Shown piece by piece: positions 44,688 through 61,354 of a stretch of 64,000 nucleotides of DNA. The stretch comes from a virus. Lineage: Duplodnaviria; Heunggongvirae; Uroviricota; Caudoviricetes. Every line of letters starts with the position of its first letter. The stretch's first letter is position 1. The notes under the pieces were generated by a model that ran no database searches, was not told the DNA's origin, and was given only the letters and a program-made list of their open reading frames with translations. The position numbers were made by a program, and so were the translations under genes. The stretch lies in IMG/VR virus record IMGVR_UViG_3300028800_000066, positions 8,207-72,206 of that record, one strand, 5' to 3'.

Positions 44688-44700
44688 GATTACCTCTCGG

Positions 44701-44788
44701 TAGTCGTGTAGGGAATCGAACCCTAGTTAGGCTGTCATCTACAGCTAGGAGTTTATAAGGCTCCCTCGGTGCCACACCTCGCACGACC
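44701..44788 (-). tRNA. 88-nt type-II tRNA with anticodon loop CTTATAA (TAT, Ile AUA, by canonical fold), identity uncertain
   Basis: Good acceptor and T arms. 22-nt variable arm with gctgt/acagc stem. AC stem has a C-A mismatch. A73. Confidence 0.5.
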
Positions 44789-46554: not shown

Positions 46555-46642
46555 TGACCAAGGAGAGATTCGAACTCTCACGCCCATTACAGGCAACGGT
46601 ATCTAAAGCCGTCATGTCTACCTATTTTTTCATCACTCGGCC
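46555..46642 (-). tRNA. type-II tRNA, probable Leu (TAG) with oversized D-loop
   Basis: Acceptor ggccgag/cttggtc (2 G-U). AC stem acggc/accgt with loop TTTAGAT. Variable arm tgcctgtaatgggcgt. Fold less certain than the others. Confidence 0.45.
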
Positions 46643-50169: not shown

Positions 50170-50556
50170 TTACCAATCCAATGTTCCAGCATTAACACAG
50201 GCTACACCAAAAACAGCGCCAACAGCTACATCCAATAACTCTGCCTTGAAATGAGTTTTGTCGTTTTTATGTAAAGCTTCCATCATTTCACGATGTTCTT
50301 CATCTACTACACCAGCGATTTCGTGAGTTGAAGCAAATGTTCCATAACCTTTTTGTTTAAGTCTACGATTAAGTTCTAATCTGAATTCCATAACAGCTTG
50401 TTCAATTTGTTCTTGCGTAATTTCCAGTCTAGCATTAGCCATTTGTTCTCCACGCGCAGGAACTTCCATGTCCGAATCCAGTCCCGCCATAAGGGCATCA
50501 ATTTCGCTCTGACTTAATATATCGTCCACTCTATGCTCTGAGAAGATTTCGCTCAA
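50170..50556 (-). CDS. MazG-like all-alpha NTP pyrophosphohydrolase (putative)
   Basis: ASTHEIAGVVDEEHREMMEAL...ELLDVAVGAVF acidic helix pattern. Confidence 0.45.
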   Translation of the reverse strand: MSEIFSEHRVDDILSQSEIDALMAGLDSDMEVPARGEQMANARLEITQEQIEQAVMEFRLELNRRLKQKGYGTFASTHEIAGVVDEEHREMMEALHKNDKTHFKAELLDVAVGAVFGVACVNAGTLDW

Positions 50557-51550
50557 CGGCTTGACCGTGCATCCAATGTTTCACGGTCTGGATGTGATTC
50601 TTTCTCACATATTTAGCCGCAGACTTTCTAAAATCACCGTATGAAAACTTGTCAGCAATTCTGATTACATATCCTTCTTTGCTCTGCCAATTTTCTTTGT
50701 TGTACAAAGCTTTAATTTTTGTCTCATCATAGATTCCATCATACAAAACTGGAACGCTTTGGATGTTCAAAAGATTAAACCAAGAAGCCGTATCATCCCA
50801 ATCCAGGCATTCGTTCTTTTCATTCCAAACCGAGAATCCCATGAAATAGGTGGGGAGATTATCGTAGCCAATTGAGTGTTTGGCCCAAAGATTCTCACCG
50901 CAGACTCTCCAACCTTCGGGGATATCGTTAGCGATTGCCGCCCAAAAGTTCTTTACCCAATTTCTAGAAACATGAGTGTCACTGTTTATACTTCTTGCAT
51001 GGATGTGGTCACGATACATTGTCGTGTTTTCTCCATCCATTTTTTCTGTAACAATAACTCTTTTACCTTCAAAACTTTTCATGTTCTCAATCATGCGGTC
51101 ATCATCGTTCATGTTTTCCGACCAAGGAACATGGTATGTTCTAGGATATTTTACATAACTGGTAAACTGTCCGAGAACATCAGCTAAAATCTTTTGGACG
51201 CTCAAATCGTAAAACAACTCACCTTTAAGTCTTTGACCATTGGGAAGAATAATGTTTCCCCATTTATCGTAAGTCTGGTCGTGATAGAAATGTTCTGGAA
51301 GAACTGGTTTAGTAATTCCGCACTTCTCACGAACTTGTTCCACAGAAATATTGGTCTTTTCACATTCAATGTGATGTTCTTCGCAAACCGAAGCGCCATT
51401 GTTTAGAAAATAACCGCCATTTCCCCAAATCCTACGTTCAATTATATGGTGTGCATCTGCCGCTGGTTCTCCACAAAATACGCACTTATGACCATCTCTT
51501 TTGAAGACGCCCTCACGGAATTCATCACGAGTGAGCAATTTGGATTCCAT
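50531..51550 (-). CDS. HNH nuclease fused to ATP-dependent RNA ligase-like nucleotidyltransferase
   Basis: N-terminal CVFCGEPAADAHHII...CEEHH. Ligase motif I TEKMDGEN (KxDGxN), motif IV EGYVIR, motif V AAKYVRK. Confidence 0.55.
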   Translation of the reverse strand: MESKLLTRDEFREGVFKRDGHKCVFCGEPAADAHHIIERRIWGNGGYFLNNGASVCEEHHIECEKTNISVEQVREKCGITKPVLPEHFYHDQTYDKWGNIILPNGQRLKGELFYDLSVQKILADVLGQFTSYVKYPRTYHVPWSENMNDDDRMIENMKSFEGKRVIVTEKMDGENTTMYRDHIHARSINSDTHVSRNWVKNFWAAIANDIPEGWRVCGENLWAKHSIGYDNLPTYFMGFSVWNEKNECLDWDDTASWFNLLNIQSVPVLYDGIYDETKIKALYNKENWQSKEGYVIRIADKFSYGDFRKSAAKYVRKNHIQTVKHWMHGQAVERNLLRA

Positions 51551-52403: not shown

Positions 52404-52763
52404 TTACCTAATGCGCTTACCCGTATTCTTTTCAACTCTTACTGCTCTATCATCCCACAATTCAATTAAACCGTGGTCTTTTATATTAGTCACTTCCAAT
52501 TTCTGACCAATATGTTTCTCGCACCAATCTTCAATTCTCTTTCTAATTTCAGAAATACTTTCTTCGTTTCTAGCTGGTTCGGCAACTCTAGCCGTAAAAA
52601 TCTTTACGGTTTTTCCAGAAGCCAGCCAAAGTTTAACTCGTCTCACCATAGCTGGAATTGGCTCACCAATTTCTTTTTTATAACCTTCATAGTAAGCGAG
52701 TGTCCCGTCTAAATCAACACCATACCAACCTTGTTTACGCTCTACCATTATCAAATCCCTCAT
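52404..52763 (-). CDS. HAD-family phosphatase (polynucleotide 3'-phosphatase-like)
   Basis: GVDLDGTLA (DxDGT motif I). KIFTAR (motif II region). 119 aa. Confidence 0.55.
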   Translation of the reverse strand: MRDLIMVERKQGWYGVDLDGTLAYYEGYKKEIGEPIPAMVRRVKLWLASGKTVKIFTARVAEPARNEESISEIRKRIEDWCEKHIGQKLEVTNIKDHGLIELWDDRAVRVEKNTGKRIR

Positions 52764-52935
52764 ATATACAGTCGTAATTATTTTCTATATAACTTTTAGT
52801 TACTTTAATATTGTCTAACATTGTGTCGCCGTGATAAATCATAACTTGAGCTTCATCGCCACAATCTTCAATCACAGTCAATATGCATTTTTCAAATGTT
52901 CTGCTTTTCCATTTAGCATTGAATCCGAAACGCAT
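52735..52935 (-). CDS. hypothetical small protein
   Basis: ORF overlapping the phosphatase 5' end. Confidence 0.3.
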   Translation of the reverse strand: MRFGFNAKWKSRTFEKCILTVIEDCGDEAQVMIYHGDTMLDNIKVTKSYIENNYDCIYEGFDNGRA

Positions 52936-52957
52936 TTCTATCCTTGAGTTAAATTTG

Positions 52958-53029
52958 CTGGCTCTCTAAGAATCGAACTTAGACTCATTCGGGTAACAAC
53001 CGAAGGTTTTACCATTAAACTAAGAGCCA
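52958..53029 (-). tRNA. tRNA-Asn (GTT), second copy
   Basis: Loop TTGTTAC. Confidence 0.7.
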
Positions 53030-53143
53030 ATGATGCCGACTTTCATATCTTAGACGGCAAGCCAGCATTATAACTCAGTAAGCCTACGCTCACATTGTAT
53101 CTGGTCTTTAATTTTTAAAGATTGTACTGTATTATGAAACTGT

Positions 53144-53217
53144 TGGCTCCCGACCAAGGAATCGAACCTCAATTCTGGCATTAACAGTGCCGCGTCCTAC
53201 CATTGAACGAGTCGGAA
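53144..53217 (-). tRNA. tRNA-Asn (GTT), third copy, CCA encoded
   Basis: Loop CTGTTAA. Body differs from copies 1 and 2. Confidence 0.65.
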
Positions 53218-53244
53218 ATGCTTACTACTTCTACATTACAACTG

Positions 53245-53273
53245 ATTATATCACATTTCGCTCTATTTGTCAA
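53245..53273 (-). promoter_or_regulatory. consensus sigma70 promoter P3 (TTGACA-17-TGaTATAAT) for Asn tRNA array
   Basis: rc: ggcTTGACAaatagagcgaaatgTGaTATAATcag. Confidence 0.75.
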
Positions 53274-53281
53274 GCCAAAAG

Positions 53282-53318
53282 AAAACCCCTCCGAACTTTT
53301 TTTAAGGTCCGGAGGGGT
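53282..53318 (-). terminator. rho-independent terminator abutting promoter P3
   Basis: CCCCUCCG-GACCUUAAAAAAAGUU-CGGAGGGG followed by UUUUCUUUUGG. The U-tail overlaps the -35 of P3. Confidence 0.7.
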
Positions 53319-53492
53319 TAATTTAGTGGTTGATGATTGCAGTTTAAACCATTAAACTAGACCCTCTTAGACAATAGATTTCTATTACCCAACCAGAGGT
53401 TAGATATTGTTCGTCCATTGGTTAAAGAGGTTAAAGTCTTCATGATTAAACCTTCCGTCTATTTGTGTAGACAAAGTAGTGCATCTACTTCA
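53319..53492 (-). ncRNA. candidate about 200-nt small transcript between ext -10 promoter and terminator (sRNA or 32-aa micro-ORF)
   Basis: Bounded by the TGaTATAAT element (53498-53506) and the terminator 53282-53318. Contains hairpins GUAG-AUGCA-CUAC and AGGUUUAA...UUUAACCU. Also a possible 32-aa ORF with GGAAGG RBS. Confidence 0.35.
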
Positions 53493-53497
53493 TTACT

Positions 53498-53526
53498 ATT
53501 ATATCAAAAATTATAAAATTTTACCA
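53498..53526 (-). promoter_or_regulatory. candidate extended -10 promoter (TGaTATAAT)
   Basis: rc: TGGTAA-17-TGaTATAAT downstream of ORF 53544..53927. Weak -35. Confidence 0.4.
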
Positions 53527-53543
53527 CTTTTTAATACAAATTT

Positions 53544-53927
53544 TTATTCAAAATCTGACAATGGCATATTGAATTTTGACGAGCAAAAGCTGTTTGCGGC
53601 CTGGACTGAATTATTATATTCCAACAGTAAATCAGGTGGTTGAATGTCTTTTAATTCAGAAACAACGCGCTTATAAATATCTGAAGCTAGTCTATCTCTT
53701 TCCGCAAGTATTCCGCGTAACATTGTAGCTTCGCCACGAAGATTATCGAACTCTGGATAATATTTTTCTTTAACAATTCTCAAATTATCAGAGTGTTCAT
53801 CTTCCAATTTTTTCCTAGCATCTACATAAACTTCGATAATTTTCTCTTTTTCCTGTTCATAAAGCTTGTCAGCTTCCTTTTGTTTCTTATCTAATTCCTG
53901 AAGCTTTTTAGAAGTCGGAAACATCAT
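53544..53927 (-). CDS. hypothetical coiled-coil protein
   Basis: ORF. Confidence 0.45.
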   Translation of the reverse strand: MMFPTSKKLQELDKKQKEADKLYEQEKEKIIEVYVDARKKLEDEHSDNLRIVKEKYYPEFDNLRGEATMLRGILAERDRLASDIYKRVVSELKDIQPPDLLLEYNNSVQAANSFCSSKFNMPLSDFE

Positions 53928-54017
53928 TTTTTATCCTAAGAAAAGAAAACAACCTATTCAAGTTTTCAGTTGTTTGAGTGGCACTGCGAAGCTTACGTCT
54001 TGAACCACTGACTTATA

Positions 54018-55721
54018 TTAACCCTTGATGAAGTCACTCATCACGGCTGGGGCAGATGAATCGAATCCTACCACGTCTAACATTCCAGCATCGTTAGGGT
54101 CTGCAATCGTGAAATCATTCGTAACCATACCAACCACAACTGACTTGGCATTGTTACTAGACTGCTTGCGATATTCTGCAAGAGCCTGATGTGGGTGAAT
54201 TCTTCCAGCATAAGTCTCGTTATCGGTGTAGACAAAGAAAGCATCTACATCTAACTTATTCTGCTTTGCATAAACCATCGGCAAAGAGCAATCAGTTCCA
54301 CGGAAAGGAAGATTATTGATGACTGAGATTACATCATCCAATCTCTTCTTTCCAGAAATGTTCAAGTCAATGAACTCTGTCGAGAATCCCTTGATATAGA
54401 CGTTCTTCTCAACCTTTGCAGTAACCATTGCCATAGCCGCGCTTACCACTCTTGGCGTAAGACCTGGAATACCAGAAATTGAACCGCCGTCCATTGAACC
54501 AGACACGTCCAAGGCCAACATGATGTTCTTTCCAGTTGGCTCAACATTATCAAATGCTGTGTAGAAAGCAGAATCCAATGCGTCCACAACTGTCTGGACC
54601 GGAGTCCAGGAATTTCCACCACGCTCACCGTGACCCTGCTGATAAACCTTCAAGGCCGACAATAACTGAATCGGATGCACTCTCGCCTTCTTCAAAGCCT
54701 CTACATTAGCAAGCTTTTCAGCGACAAGCTTTGAACCCTGTGAAAGCGGTGCAATCAATCCAACTCTTGTCATTGTTGCAATATTACGAATCATTGCAGT
54801 CAATGGCATGTGCGGAAGTAATGCATCCCACACTTCAATGGTGTTAAGTAACTCTGTAGGAACAGCTTCACGAGGAAGTTCGTGTTCTCTAATCAATCCA
54901 ACAATTTCAGAAGCAGTCGTTGCCCTCTGAGCCTGTTCGAAAGCATTAATCATCGGGTGGATATTGACGATAAGCTTTCCTTCATTGTCATAGTGCGACT
55001 TTACCCATGACTGAATCTGCTCGTGCTTCTCGGAATACTTCACCTTTGCCGAATCGTTCTTGGCAGAGACAGGGGCATCCTTACCAGCCTTATACTTATT
55101 CCACGCAACCCACTGATAGATATCATTACGTGCGGCATCAGCGGTCTTCAAGTGAGCAAGACGCAACGCATCACGATGTTCAAAACCTTCACGATTACGA
55201 TACTTAATAACCTGTAATGCAAGGCCATCCAAGTTCTTCTCGTTATACCAACGCTGAACTGCCTTACGCAATCCAGTACCAGTTCCCTTGCCAATGGTGT
55301 CCGCAATCGACAAGAACTGGAACAAATGTGTGGCGATTCTGCATACCTTTGAAAGGTTCTGATATGCATACGCACGAGTAGCCGCATCACCATGCTTTAC
55401 GACAAGCGCAAGAGCAAACACAGCGGGGTCATTCTTTGGAGCGCGACCATTGTGAGAAATTTCCACAATAGTATCAACAGTCTTGCGACCATTTTCCTTC
55501 ACGCACTCCAAGATGCACTTCGCACTGTCCTGTGTCATCTTGTGCTCGGATGCATAATACGAGCCACCCTCGTTTCCAAGAATCAAGAAACGGTTTAAAC
55601 GGGTCCAGTTGTCTACCTTGAATGTAAAGCCACCCGCGCTGTTTGGAACCTGATTGCTTCCGAATACCTTCTCGGACTGGGGTGTAACCTTAGTTGAAAC
55701 GTGCGAAGCATAGTTTGACAT
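54018..55721 (-). CDS. vWA-domain protein with Ro60/TROVE-like architecture (Rsr-like, inferred)
   Basis: C-terminal vWA MIDAS LALDVSGSMDG...T...D. About 400-aa helical N-terminal module. 567 aa matches the Ro60 size and domain order. GGAAGAGGAG RBS. Own consensus promoter. Confidence 0.5.
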   Translation of the reverse strand: MSNYASHVSTKVTPQSEKVFGSNQVPNSAGGFTFKVDNWTRLNRFLILGNEGGSYYASEHKMTQDSAKCILECVKENGRKTVDTIVEISHNGRAPKNDPAVFALALVVKHGDAATRAYAYQNLSKVCRIATHLFQFLSIADTIGKGTGTGLRKAVQRWYNEKNLDGLALQVIKYRNREGFEHRDALRLAHLKTADAARNDIYQWVAWNKYKAGKDAPVSAKNDSAKVKYSEKHEQIQSWVKSHYDNEGKLIVNIHPMINAFEQAQRATTASEIVGLIREHELPREAVPTELLNTIEVWDALLPHMPLTAMIRNIATMTRVGLIAPLSQGSKLVAEKLANVEALKKARVHPIQLLSALKVYQQGHGERGGNSWTPVQTVVDALDSAFYTAFDNVEPTGKNIMLALDVSGSMDGGSISGIPGLTPRVVSAAMAMVTAKVEKNVYIKGFSTEFIDLNISGKKRLDDVISVINNLPFRGTDCSLPMVYAKQNKLDVDAFFVYTDNETYAGRIHPHQALAEYRKQSSNNAKSVVVGMVTNDFTIADPNDAGMLDVVGFDSSAPAVMSDFIKG

Positions 55722-55788
55722 GGTGTTCTCCTCTTCCCTTTACGGGGGTTATAAGATTAATGCAAGTCGTCCCACAACGACTAAGAGC

Positions 55789-55817
55789 ATTATATCCTTT
55801 TTAATCTAATTTATCAA
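55789..55817 (-). promoter_or_regulatory. sigma70 promoter P6 (TTGATA-17-TATAAT) for the Ro60-like gene
   Basis: rc: TTGATAaattagattaaaaaggaTATAAT. A 5'-UTR hairpin GUCGU-UGUGGG-ACGAC follows. Confidence 0.65.
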
Positions 55818-56502
55818 GAACTTTTTGCGATTTGTTTTCAATTACTGGTTCTGTTAATTCATTTGATTTTACATCATTTTTAATTTCTGTAACGGGGTCT
55901 CCAATTGGTTCTGGAACAGTTGGAGTTTGCGTCACGATACTTATTCCAGATACGCTTGTACTAGCACTATCTCTTCTGATTCTTGCTAAAAACTCTTGAT
56001 ATGTTTCTGACAGTGATTCTGATGGTCTTACAGCAGAAACTACTGGACCAGGAGGCGGCGGTGGAGGTGTAGGTTCTGGAACTCTTAGCAACCTATTTAA
56101 TCTTTCTCGCGCTCTCTCTTCGTCCCTAGTTAAAACATTTCTAGCTTCTCTAACTTTTTGCTGATATTCTCTAATAACTTCTTGATATCTAGTTTCTAAT
56201 TGATTCAACAATTCGGTATCAGTAAGTCTTCTATATCTGATTTTGAATGTGTCATTAGAAATCTCATCGCTATTGCGGCTAGAATCTGTATAATCAAGAA
56301 TATCACCACCATACGTTCTTCCAGGTATATGGTCTGAAATATTCTGAATTTGTTCTACCGTTCTAACTCTAGGTCCGTCATAATTAACAGGATTTTTTAC
56401 TACTCTACAATATTCGAAACGATTATTTACATTATAAAACCAACGACCAATCTTTGGCTTATTACTATTTCTAGTTAAGAAGTTCCACAATCCCATATTC
56501 AA
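55801..56502 (-). CDS. hypothetical protein with poly-Pro segment
   Basis: EPTPPPPPPGPV. Confidence 0.5.
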   Translation of the reverse strand: MNMGLWNFLTRNSNKPKIGRWFYNVNNRFEYCRVVKNPVNYDGPRVRTVEQIQNISDHIPGRTYGGDILDYTDSSRNSDEISNDTFKIRYRRLTDTELLNQLETRYQEVIREYQQKVREARNVLTRDEERARERLNRLLRVPEPTPPPPPPGPVVSAVRPSESLSETYQEFLARIRRDSASTSVSGISIVTQTPTVPEPIGDPVTEIKNDVKSNELTEPVIENKSQKVLDKLD

Positions 56503-56519
56503 ACCTGAGAATTATTTTG

Positions 56520-56591
56520 TCGGGATAGCTGGATTTGAACCAGCGGCCCCCTGCTCCCAAAGCAGGTGCGCTACCCCTGCGCCATATCCCG
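56520..56591 (-). tRNA. tRNA-Pro (TGG)
   Basis: Loop TTTGGGA. Confidence 0.8.
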
Positions 56592-56610
56592 ATAGGTAAT
56601 TTAATTTTTG

Positions 56611-61072: not shown

Positions 61073-61354
61073 TTACTTAACGTTTGCGGCTTGGTCGCCC
61101 TTCTGACCCGCGACAATCTCAAACGTAACTTCCTGACCCTCTTTCAAGGTCTTAAAACCACTCGCCTGGATGGCAGAGAAGTGAACGAATACATCAGCCC
61201 TACCCTCACACTCGATAAAGCCGAAACCCTTCTTATCGTTGAACCACTTCACCTTGCCATTGTGTACATTAGCCATTACACTTACTCCTTCTTTTCTAGT
61301 AAAAATCTTTTTAGCGAAATGCCAAAAAGAAGTTGTTGCAGATTTTTCCTTCAC
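61073..61354 (-). CDS. cspA: cold-shock protein CspA family
   Basis: [30 protein letters not shown] (RNP1/RNP2 motifs). Confidence 0.9.

Follow-up and report, generated by a model that had tools for sequence, protein, structure and literature searches.

Within a 64,000-nucleotide stretch of a giant-phage genome (IMG/VR record IMGVR_UViG_3300028800_000066; hereafter the window), we identified a minus-strand unit of ~215-220 nt that runs from a promoter to a terminator, lies upstream of tRNA-Asn genes and is conserved in 14 related giant-phage contigs. Computation established the promoter and terminator sequences, a maintained short open reading frame (ORF), three competing RNA helices and lineage-specific complementarity within them. 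We propose – as an evenly balanced judgement – that this giant phage carries, in the unit, a ribosome-mediated transcription attenuator like those of trp, thr and his.

A promoter-to-terminator unit conserved among giant phages

A reading of the window made from the sequence alone had described an extended -10 element (TGaTATAAT) and a canonical terminator that bracket ~200 nt one gene downstream of a Ro60-like gene. We found both elements, at 53506-53498 and 53319-53277, and the sole gene between Ro60 and the unit is a 127-residue ORF. The unit's boundaries and neighbours are as follows:

55721-54018, minus strand: Ro60 gene (TROVE and vWA_Ro60 domains, E = 1e-60 and 1e-43, Pfam)
53927-53544, minus strand: 127-residue ORF between Ro60 and the unit
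53507..53545, minus strand: conserved A/T-rich block AAAAATTTGTATTAAAAAGTGGTAAAATTTTATAATTTT, 5' of the leader -10 (alignment of relatives)
53506-53498, minus strand: extended -10 of the leader promoter, TGATATAAT
53277..53319, minus strand: intrinsic terminator (helix 3:4), a 13-bp G+C-rich stem (53319-53284) and U-tract
53273-53245, minus strand: promoter P3, TTGACA-17-TGaTATAAT, a 12/12 match to the sigma-70 consensus, which drives the tRNA-Asn genes
53217-53144 and 53029-52957, minus strand: two tRNA-Asn(GUU) genes, the first genes downstream of the unit (ARAGORN, Rfam)
52396-52322, minus strand: third tRNA-Asn gene (ARAGORN, Rfam)

In the alignment, TGATATAAT or a near variant occupies the equivalent position in 14 relatives, and the leader transcription start is predicted at ~53494-53491 on the minus strand. 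The A/T-rich block, whose motif TTTGTATTAAAA occurs a single time in the window, may serve the leader promoter as an UP-like element or a factor site. At the other end of the unit, the terminator stem (AACCCCUCCGGACC..GGUUCGGAGGGGUU, 53319-53284) folds with an energy of -22.3 kcal/mol and is directly followed by the U-tract UUUUCUUUU at 53285-53277. A terminator hairpin with a U-tract is present in all 15 sequences, and the stems covary. Our scan for consensus promoters and terminators listed neither the leader promoter, which has a poor -35 (~3/6, read by eye), nor the terminator, which has a loop of 10 nt against a scanner maximum of 8; both are nevertheless conserved among relatives.

On the same strand as Ro60, the unit follows that gene at a distance of 0.5-0.7 kb in the window and 0-2.6 kb in relatives. 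All 12 close Ro60 relatives that were fetched (identity 63-86%) have this arrangement, and the unit recurs in three further metagenome contigs. No strong terminator was found between Ro60 or the 127-residue ORF and the leader; the spacer between these two genes contains only a weak hairpin (z = 0.3). A long-pattern search returned four matches in JGI metagenomes, none in IMG/VR and none in GTDB genomes, and the 23 short-pattern matches in IMG/VR were judged to be chance because none fits the family profile.

The first tRNA downstream of the unit is tRNA-Asn at every locus. Where contigs extend, Arg tRNAs (including ACG and UCU) follow tRNA-Asn. In the window, a Pnk-like ORF and an RNA ligase lie further downstream. 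The linkage between the unit and tRNA-Asn may simply reflect that these related genomes are collinear. P3 follows the terminator in all 15 sequences and is one of nine minus-strand TTGAC-N18-20-TAYAAT sites in the window, most of which read TTGACAAA...TGnTATAAT; no similar leader-terminator unit was found in front of the window's other consensus promoters and tRNA clusters. The terminator U-tract had been read as overlapping the P3 -35. We found that the -35 begins 3 nt past the U-tract, which bears out the terminator-promoter tandem.

A maintained reading frame and competing helices

The sequence-only reading had also pointed to a possible 32-residue micro-ORF with a GGAAGG ribosome-binding site. 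The ORF and its ribosome-binding site were upheld, but the ORF has 28 codons (33 open codons when the frame is counted from the preceding stop). Its elements are as follows:

53456-53451, minus strand: Shine-Dalgarno (SD) sequence GGAAGG, 7 nt 5' of the AUG
53443-53357, minus strand: leader micro-ORF of 28 codons and a TAG stop, MKTLTSLTNGRTISNLWLGNRNLLSKRV (identified from its openness in relatives and from stop counts)
53408..53419, minus strand: candidate control codons AAU GGA CGA ACA (Asn-Gly-Arg), nominated by conservation and masked folds

The micro-ORF is open in 15 of 15 sequences, with no stops in frame versus 53 and 58 in the other two frames, and its indels among relatives are 3-nt indels that preserve the frame. 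A purine-rich GGA/AGG block stands 6-10 nt ahead of the ATG in every sequence (15/15). The encoded peptide is 26-33 residues long, polar and basic, and has no transmembrane-like stretch. Its core, N-R-R-T..W-L-G-N-G-N-L-L-S, is kept despite synonymous changes, and the residues W..G.G.LLS are maintained with synonymous changes in two contigs, L014 and L015. Judged by comparison among relatives, the micro-ORF is a maintained reading frame, and the W..G.G.LLS core is under purifying selection.

Most relatives carry AAU AGA CGA ACA (Asn-Arg-Arg) where the window has AAU GGA CGA ACA. CGA makes up 58 per 1000 codons in the leaders versus 1.8 per 1000 in long ORFs of the window (~30-fold enrichment). 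The first half of the leader is rich in Thr (22%), Asn (19%) and Arg (13%) relative to backgrounds of 5.7, 5.9 and 4.7% (2.7-3.9-fold) – a richness that could be a by-product of RNA pairing constraints. The leader contains no clean run of any single regulatory codon; it has mixed Thr/Asn/Arg codons and one rare CGA.

We found that the interval folds at -69 kcal/mol (z = -5.8), with none of 200 shuffles as stable. Several hairpins had been proposed within it, and minimum-free-energy folds contain them. The RNA elements, numbered by region, are as follows:

53491-53473, minus strand: 5'-terminal hairpin 1, GAAGUAG-AUGCA-CUACUUU (minimum-free-energy folds)
53472-53457, minus strand: 5'-terminal hairpin 2, GUCUA-CACAAA-UAGAC (minimum-free-energy folds)
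53425..53452, minus strand: region 1, the SD-proximal sequence, AUG and codons 1-7, GGUUUAAUCAUGAAGACUUUAACCUCUU; its partner is region 2
53372..53420, minus strand: apical part of the ORF hairpin, consisting of P1 (CAAUGGA/UCUAUUG), an internal loop and P2 (AUCUAACC-UCU-GGUUGGGU)
53347..53372, minus strand: region 2, GUCUAAGAGGGUCUAGUUUAAUGGUU, the final four codons with the stop and the 10 nt after it; 5' strand of the antiterminator
53307..53331, minus strand: region 3, AACCACUAAAUUAACCCCUCCGGAC, the conserved tail and the terminator 5' arm; 3' strand of the antiterminator

The 5' stems covary, with compensatory changes in relatives such as GAAGCAG/CUGCUUU and GAAACGG/CCGUUUC. Pairs of the ORF hairpin are mostly invariant, with G-C to G-U changes and a few double changes (RNAalifold, 14 sequences).

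Beyond these local hairpins, we identified three mutually exclusive helices, alternative pairings that the sequence-only reading had missed and that give the unit its resemblance to an attenuator: 1:2, between the start region and the ORF 3' end (-17 to -38 kcal/mol across sequences); 2:3, between the ORF 3' end and the terminator 5' arm (-11 to -24 kcal/mol); and 3:4, the terminator (-15 to -25 kcal/mol). Helix 2:3 of the window spans 53373-53304, with an energy of -20.1 kcal/mol. The full-length minimum-free-energy fold combines 1:2 with 3:4 in nearly all sequences. When the terminator 3' arm was omitted and a ribosome footprint placed on N-R-R, the ORF 3' end took up 7-15 nt of the terminator 5' arm in every one of the 15 sequences; once the footprint was moved to the stop codon, only 0-8 nt of the arm paired (12 in L039). 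In such a model, region 1 and the P1 5' arm would lie under a ribosome whose A site is at the control codons, and region 2 under one that has reached the stop codon.

Helices 1:2 and 2:3 each track, by computation, their partners across lineages. Each lineage's own 1:2 duplexes sum to -82 versus a cross-lineage mean of -55, and none of 265 derangements reaches the observed value. For 2:3, own duplexes sum to -73 to -80 versus -52 to -56 (0/265 in each of three representative sets). Against composition shuffles the 2:3 duplex has a mean z of -2.7, with weak z-scores in the subclade of L008, L005 and L041. On a covariance-model-guided, structure-fitted alignment – a kind of alignment that leans towards structure, on which all 2:3 pair counts rest – 79% of 2:3 cells are paired (slid controls, <=58%), 14 cells change on both sides versus 6.0 in shuffles, two-sided changes occur in 8 pairs and covariation scores 0.311 versus 0.219 (0/500). 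RNAalifold recovered neither 1:2 nor 2:3 from plain MAFFT alignments of all lineages because registers shift; a 2:3 consensus was obtained from four close sequences and via the covariance model. Pairing of the stop region with the tail, taken by itself, was no better for own than for cross-lineage combinations and is sensible solely within the longer 2:3 helix. By thermodynamic prediction, both an antiterminator (2:3), incompatible with the terminator, and an anti-antiterminator (1:2), incompatible with 2:3, are conserved.

Proposed attenuation and the alternatives to it

We infer that translation of the leader controls termination, and the codons sensed and the purpose of read-through given below are likewise proposals. 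Transcription would begin at the extended -10 promoter or enter from the Ro60 operon, and a ribosome would load at GGAAGG-AUG and translate the 28-codon leader. If there is no stall or no translation, region 1 would pair with region 2, or region 2 would be covered by a ribosome standing at the stop codon; with region 2 occupied, region 3 would pair with region 4 and RNA polymerase would terminate at 53284-53277. A stall in the first half of the leader would instead cover region 1, allowing 2:3 to form and sequester the terminator 5' arm. Polymerase would then read into the tRNA-Asn genes and, beyond them, into the Pnk-like ORF and the RNA ligase. The best-placed stall site would be the conserved AAU-AGA-CGA (AAU-GGA-CGA in the window), in which CGA is a codon very rare in this phage. 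Given the purifying selection on the peptide core, the nascent or free peptide probably contributes as well, for instance if it slows the ribosome or acts in trans.

The unit shares much with the attenuators of amino-acid operons and pheST (trpL, thrL, hisL, pheL, ilvL and pheM). A short ORF with an SD sequence lies just downstream of a promoter and is followed by an intrinsic terminator; helices 1:2, 2:3 (antiterminator) and 3:4 (intrinsic terminator and U-tract) exclude one another, and their energies fall in the classical order; and the stop codon is positioned so that a terminating ribosome would cover region 2. Leaders of 26-33 codons are within the range known for classical attenuators. 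There are also differences. Classical attenuators are bacterial and precede biosynthetic enzymes, whereas the unit is borne by a giant phage and precedes tRNA and RNA-repair genes. It matches none of the Rfam Trp, Thr, His, Phe and Leu_leader families at gathering score: rnk_leader reached 23.2 bits (threshold 50) and His_leader 19.9 bits (threshold 49) at E = 0.9-4.8, and the only appearances of His_leader, rnk_leader and Phe_leader, at E = 0.9-9.5, fall far short of gathering scores.

Three further differences count against the attenuator proposal itself. The chief one is that the downstream genes, instead of depending on read-through, have their own consensus promoter (P3, 12/12) after the terminator; tRNA-Asn expression is therefore independent of read-through, and read-through could even interfere with P3. 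The unit also lacks a homopolymeric codon run, and the absence of a clean single-codon run counts against an attenuator. So does the conservation of W..G.G.LLS at the amino-acid level, which is not expected of a leader that purely counts codons. That the window's other tRNA clusters lack such a leader also weighs against the proposal. Short leaders with conserved amino acids recall the nascent-peptide sensors TnaC, SpeFL, SecM and ErmCL, and by this analogy the invariant Trp and the R-R-T stretch suggest that the nascent chain may matter. Those sensors mostly use Rho-dependent termination or unmasking of an SD sequence, not a 2:3/3:4 switch, and the unit differs from them in its variable spacing between the Trp and the C-terminus (8-16 residues) and in having a sequence that suggests no ligand.

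It is possible, though less likely than attenuation, that the unit is a stand-alone micro-protein gene whose 26-33-residue peptide is the sole relevant product, acting for instance with Ro60, the tRNA-repair enzymes or the ribosome. On that account the hairpins would stabilize the mRNA or control its translation, and the terminator would do no more than insulate the unit from the tRNA promoter. The reading frame maintained in 15 of 15 sequences, the core residues that survive synonymous changes in L014 and L015, the unit's possession of its own promoter and terminator, the strong independent promoter that serves the tRNAs and the annotation of the ORF by a gene caller in two contigs (only 2 of 15) all fit such a gene. 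It leaves unexplained, however, why complementarity between the ORF 3' end and the terminator 5' arm is kept through lineage-specific changes and why the start region is complementary to the ORF 3' end. The peptide also matches no Pfam or PHROGs family, and we found no close DNA or peptide relatives of the unit among GenBank phages.

The sequence-only reading had offered a small RNA or a Y-like RNA as candidates, alongside a micro-ORF. We consider it improbable that the unit is a noncoding Y-like RNA or other small RNA, bound by Ro60 or base-pairing via its tail (UCAUCAACCACUAAA), with an incidental ORF. Like YrlA (RF02553; Chen et al. 2014, PMC4201824), which is encoded on the same strand as Ro60 and within 4 kb of it, the unit lies on the Ro60 strand (within 0.7 kb), is strongly structured and contains GACGAA; its synonymous-site identity is also somewhat raised (0.68 versus 0.49 in Ro60). 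It differs from YrlA in lacking a T/AS/D module, a covariance-model match and a stem joining its 5' and 3' ends, and in being protein-coding. Its stop statistics are incompatible with an incidental frame.

Our Rfam scans detected neither Y_RNA (RF00019) nor YrlA, with cut-offs of E <= 10 for 52900-56600 and E <= 5 for the entire window, and no Y RNA or YrlA in the unit at gathering and permissive E-values across the window and 13 related loci. A tRNA-like domain (T-arm, closed acceptor-like stem and D-arm) is missing from the unit; a D-arm-like sequence around the window's stop codon (UAGUUUAAUGGU) is not conserved in relatives. The YrlA model does, however, detect a T-arm/stem/D-arm module in L015, where positions 30-81 match 2331-2383 (E = 0.002), providing a positive control. 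L015 likely carries a true Y-like RNA, and its module stands upstream of the same micro-ORF; the Y RNA and the leader are therefore distinct entities. Neither the window nor any other locus contains the repeat motif found in the L015 Y-like region. Another YrlA match, at L008 3307-3373, proved to be the junction of two tandem tRNA-Asn genes.

In YrlA-type RNAs, the motif GNCGAAN0-1G near the 5' end is the proposed Ro60 contact. The unit's counterpart, GACGAACA, has no final G and falls within ORF codons 10-12, at a distance of 70 nt from the 5' end. The GACGAA string belongs to conserved Arg codons and is lost in three relatives: it is GACGCA in L014 (a synonymous change that keeps the amino acids) and GACUAA in L013, and is absent in L015. 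GACGAA does resemble the GNCGAAN0-1G of YrlA RNAs (PMC4201824). The tail pairs no better with tRNA-Asn than with other tRNAs, and, considered as an antisense to tRNA-Asn, it is better paired by other tRNAs (-16 versus -10 kcal/mol). We reject the Y-like reading for want of a Y_RNA or YrlA match and a tRNA-like module, and a plain small RNA is not needed: the conserved 'single-stranded' tail is accounted for as the 3' strand of the antiterminator hairpin.

A small-RNA role need not be separate from attenuation. The rnTrpL/peTrpL system of Sinorhizobium, in which termination at the attenuator yields a discrete small RNA accompanied by a conserved leader peptide, each with functions of its own, sets a precedent for attenuator RNAs that act in trans and for one unit serving as cis-regulator, small RNA and micro-protein together (PMC6614838). 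It has no sequence or structural homology to the unit, for which a trans function is hypothetical.

A type I toxin-antitoxin-like arrangement, in which 5'/3' pairing would keep the mRNA of a toxic small peptide translationally closed, is very hard to credit: the small ORF does lie inside a long hairpin with its AUG paired, but the peptide is polar and basic without a transmembrane-like stretch, the SD sequence stays unpaired, no plus-strand promoter-like site was found in the unit (consensus scan only) and no antisense RNA candidate was seen.

Implications for giant phages

Leader-peptide attenuation is textbook knowledge for bacterial amino-acid operons. To our knowledge there is no account of it in a phage or ahead of tRNA genes, and the literature searched yielded none.

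If the unit is an attenuator, it is conceivable, though unlikely, that the phage uses stalling in the leader to sense its own tRNA supply. Failed decoding of Asn or Arg codons would stall the ribosome at AAU-AGA-CGA, let the antiterminator form and permit read-through into the replacement tRNA-Asn, Pnk-like and RNA-ligase genes – a counter-defence switch in a Ro60 RNA-repair island. Decoding might fail through host anticodon nucleases that cut Asn or Arg tRNAs or, alternatively, through a host tRNA pool unable to serve A/T-rich phage genes. Read-through transcripts would come from the leader promoter and the Ro60 operon, and the conserved peptide and the terminated RNA may also act in trans, possibly on Ro60.

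Even a conservative reading yields a clean Y-RNA negative in the window, a likely true Y-like RNA in L015 and a new conserved micro-protein family that gene callers missed in all but 2 of 15 contigs. If the attenuator proposal is true, a giant phage would gauge the decoding capacity of the infected cell via a 28-codon ORF and couple that measurement to a tRNA and RNA-repair module beside Ro60, which would offer a testable handle on the reasons for tRNA arrays in large phages and on the role of phage Ro60 modules.

The Ro60-linked leader unit and its neighbourhood

The window (G+C ~39%) comes from a large phage genome and includes a terminase large subunit gene (15178-13388), a sigma-70-like gene (39687-38548), and 41 tRNA genes plus a tmRNA, every one on the minus strand. 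The unit examined here – ~215 nt of the minus strand, bracketed by an extended -10 element (53506-53498) and a terminator (53319-53277), with a 28-codon leader micro-ORF inside – is located in a stretch of RNA-metabolism genes. In minus-strand reading order, its surroundings are:

57760-57257 (-), macro/phosphatase-like ORF (phrog_335, E = 2e-46)
55721-54018 (-), Ro60, with TROVE and vWA_Ro60 domains
53928-54017 (-), spacer between Ro60 and ORF127, with only a weak A/U-rich hairpin, then UUUUCUUUUCUU (z = 0.3 versus shuffles)
after Ro60 and before the unit (-), ORF127, a 127-aa ORF
after the unit (-), two tRNA-Asn genes
after the tRNA-Asn pair (-), 66-aa ORF
52404-52763 (-), 119-aa ORF, weakly matching PHROGs for polynucleotide kinase/phosphatase (E = 9e-7)
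after the 119-aa ORF (-), a third tRNA-Asn gene, then two small ORFs
50531-51550 (-), RNA ligase (PF09414, E = 2e-32)

The 119-aa ORF, the RNA ligase, and the macro/phosphatase-like ORF are interleaved with tRNA-Asn genes and Ro60; as a set they suggest a module for heal-and-seal RNA repair. TROVE proteins are combined with RNA ligases and end-healing enzymes in jumbo phages (PMC7824862). R2K ATP-grasp genes are additionally present in two relatives (L004 and L011). Ro60 transcripts probably run on through ORF127 into the leader unit.

GenBank phages contained no DNA match, near or distant, and their 360 Ro60 matches all fall below 60% identity. A large protein collection supplied Ro60 homologues at 63-86% identity: in every contig retrieved for these, the unit follows Ro60 in the same orientation. 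Most relatives carry a 121-139-aa ORF in between; in L007 the unit directly follows Ro60, in L014 Cpn60 and sigma genes are inserted, and in L015 a 370-nt structured insert precedes the unit. A long DNA pattern identified three further copies in JGI metagenomes, one on a contig that also carries the Ro60 end, and none in IMG/VR or GTDB genomes. Two more distant Ro60 loci (L001 and L002, 47-48% identity) lack the unit. The relatives are all metagenomic contigs of a single clade.

The sequence-only reading had described an extended -10, a terminator, and an abutting promoter, all of which we found where it placed them (the abutting promoter fits the consensus), and its structured interval was borne out by a fold z of -5.8. 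The micro-ORF that it proposed exists, with 28 codons rather than 32. A simple promoter/terminator scanner passed over the upstream promoter, whose -35 is weak, and the terminator, whose loop is 10 nt; both are kept in relatives. Nine TTGAC-N18-20-TAYAAT sites occur on the minus strand (62248, 53273, 47573, 42383, 39754, 34274, 32744, 27811, and 20600); the majority are near-identical (TTGACAAA...TGnTATAAT) and several immediately precede tRNA clusters. By sequence, this set resembles a family of early phage promoters that host sigma-70 would read, whereas the promoter of the leader (53545-53498) is of another type.

Atypical tRNAs and a possible cold-shock leader

tRNA-Asn normally has a short variable loop. 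The window's three tRNA-Asn(GUU) copies have the usual length (73-75 nt), and in many relatives the first copy after the unit spans 82-94 nt (L003:4424-4506, L008:3250-3336, L011:2988-3081, L012:7288-7378, L014:7868-7955, L015:2649-2730, L039:1836-1920, and L040:442-524). In L015, Rfam alignment places the extra bases in a long variable arm, which is unusual for this tRNA. Rfam also detected 107-116-nt tRNA genes that ARAGORN missed (L009:7783-7898, L005:7702-7808, and L011:3500-3608), which may carry short intervening sequences. The L009 gene has a ~35-nt hairpin insert (AGUCAA..UUGACA) in its anticodon loop; removing it by eye yields CUGUUAA, that is, tRNA-Asn(GUU). Atypical members of the window's own array are a tRNA-like gene between two tRNA-Leu genes (46555-46642 (-), Rfam only, 37.1 bits) and a 90-nt tRNA-Ile(UAU) call (44699-44788 (-)).

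Elsewhere, 61122-61195 (-) partially matches the cspA thermoregulator 5' UTR (RF01766 model positions 245-318; 50.9 bits, E = 5e-10, below the gathering score of 78). This sequence match suggests that a gene for a cold-shock protein lies here behind a cspA-like leader. L009 encodes a CSD protein in the equivalent position.

A leader micro-ORF and three predicted alternative helices

All 15 sequences (the window and 14 relatives) have an ATG 6-10 nt past a purine-rich block, followed by an open frame of 26-33 codons. The frame contains no stop in 456 codons, versus 53 and 58 in the other two frames, and ORF-internal indels are multiples of three. Gene callers called the micro-ORF in only two contigs, and the peptide has no Pfam or PHROG match. 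Its core comprises N-R-R-T, 2-5 variable residues, and W-L-G-N-G-N-L-L-S, of which the two most distant members retain W, G, G, L, L, and S via different codons. Overall the peptide evolves faster than Ro60 (37-70% versus 62-86% identity to the window). At synonymous sites, conservation is somewhat higher in the leader (codon identity at identical residues, main clade only, of 0.68 versus 0.49 in Ro60), which points to added RNA-level constraint.

All statements about the unit come from its sequence and from thermodynamic prediction. For nearly all sequences, minimum-free-energy folding of the full length places the entire ORF in one long irregular hairpin – an outer pairing, then inner helices P1 and P2 – followed by the terminator (3:4). 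The hairpin base (1:2) joins the SD-proximal/AUG/codon 1-7 stretch to the last codons and stop region. The outer arms vary in sequence among lineages and keep their complementarity: for six lineage representatives, own 5' and 3' segments sum to -82 kcal/mol versus an average of -55 for mismatched lineages, and 0 of 265 derangements reach the -82.

When the terminator 3' arm was withheld, the ORF 3' end (conserved GUCU to ~10 nt past the stop) paired with the conserved tail and terminator 5' arm (2:3). This pairing persisted when a ribosome footprint covered the N-R-R codons and was much reduced with one on the stop codon. Predicted energies are -11 to -24 kcal/mol for 2:3, -15 to -25 for the terminator, and -17 to -38 for the ORF hairpin. 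The 2:3 pairing is lineage-specific (L040, AAGGUCUUAGU/ACUAAGACCUU; L014, AAAGGG+AAAUGU/ACAUUU+CCCUUU; L015, AGAGGGUU/AACCCUCU). In three representative sets of 265 derangements each, none matched it, and its mean z against composition shuffles is -2.7. A covariance model from four close sequences recovered the hairpin in other lineages. Across the ten strongest matches, the model-guided alignment has 79% of its cells paired and changes on both sides in 8 of 17 pairs, and its covariation score is higher than in each of 500 shuffles and in every slid control; a separate pair count was made on 12 rows. Because this alignment is fitted to structure, we give the alignment-free tests more weight. 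The tail UCAUCAACCACUAAAYUAA, considered as an sRNA seed, is instead the upper 3' strand of the 2:3 hairpin.

Proposed attenuation, a possible micro-protein, and Y-like RNAs

The unit has the anatomy of a ribosome-mediated attenuator: promoter, translated leader with its stop codon in region 2, and helices 1:2, 2:3, and 3:4 whose energies follow the classical order. The leader codons conserved best, AAU-AGA-CGA-ACA, sit a short way 3' of region 1, and a ribosome paused there would uncover region 2. The window's long ORFs hardly use CGA (1.8 per 1000 codons), yet it occurs in 12 of 14 leaders. Thr, Asn, and Arg are abundant in the first half of the leader, and Asn(GUU) is the first tRNA downstream in every locus (in L009, after the by-eye insert removal), followed by Arg tRNAs. 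On these grounds we favor, at about even odds, an attenuator that would sense decoding of Asn and Arg codons. Against it, a consensus promoter separates the terminator from the tRNAs in 15 of 15 sequences, the leader lacks a clean regulatory codon run, the window's other tRNA clusters have no comparable leader, and synteny cannot be separated from function in these related, collinear contigs. The peptide core is, moreover, under selection as a peptide; that the unit encodes a stand-alone micro-protein is possible but, in our judgment, rather doubtful. As we read them, attenuator and micro-protein are not exclusive, and rnTrpL/peTrpL (PMC6614838) offers a comparison in which both coexist.

The Y-like RNA also raised by the sequence-only reading does not hold for the unit, in which an Rfam scan matched no Y RNA or YrlA model, the tRNA-like module is absent, and the GNCGAA-like string, a candidate Ro60 motif, is a pair of Arg codons drifting synonymously. 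The scan of the window yielded no YrlA-like module. The YrlA model does detect one in the L015 insert (~370 nt, L015:2095-2465, contig ERZ18625109 scaffold_11244), which separates the homologous promoter from the homologous micro-ORF. There, a permuted tRNA-like module (T-arm AGAGGUUUGAUUCCUCU, closed stem UCUGAU-UUUCG-GAUCAGA, D-arm UAGCUCAGUGGCAGAGC) matches YrlA positions 30-81 (26.7 bits, E = 0.002, below the gathering score) and is followed by GGGCGAAAG, fitting GNCGAAN0-1G. Upstream is a duplicated box, GAGCCGAUGGnnGUnnGUUAUCUU (the GAGCCGAUGG box), absent from the window and all other loci. Judged by sequence, the insert is probably one or two phage Y RNAs. Its position between promoter and micro-ORF indicates that the Y-like RNA and the leader are distinct, and that they can share one transcription unit.
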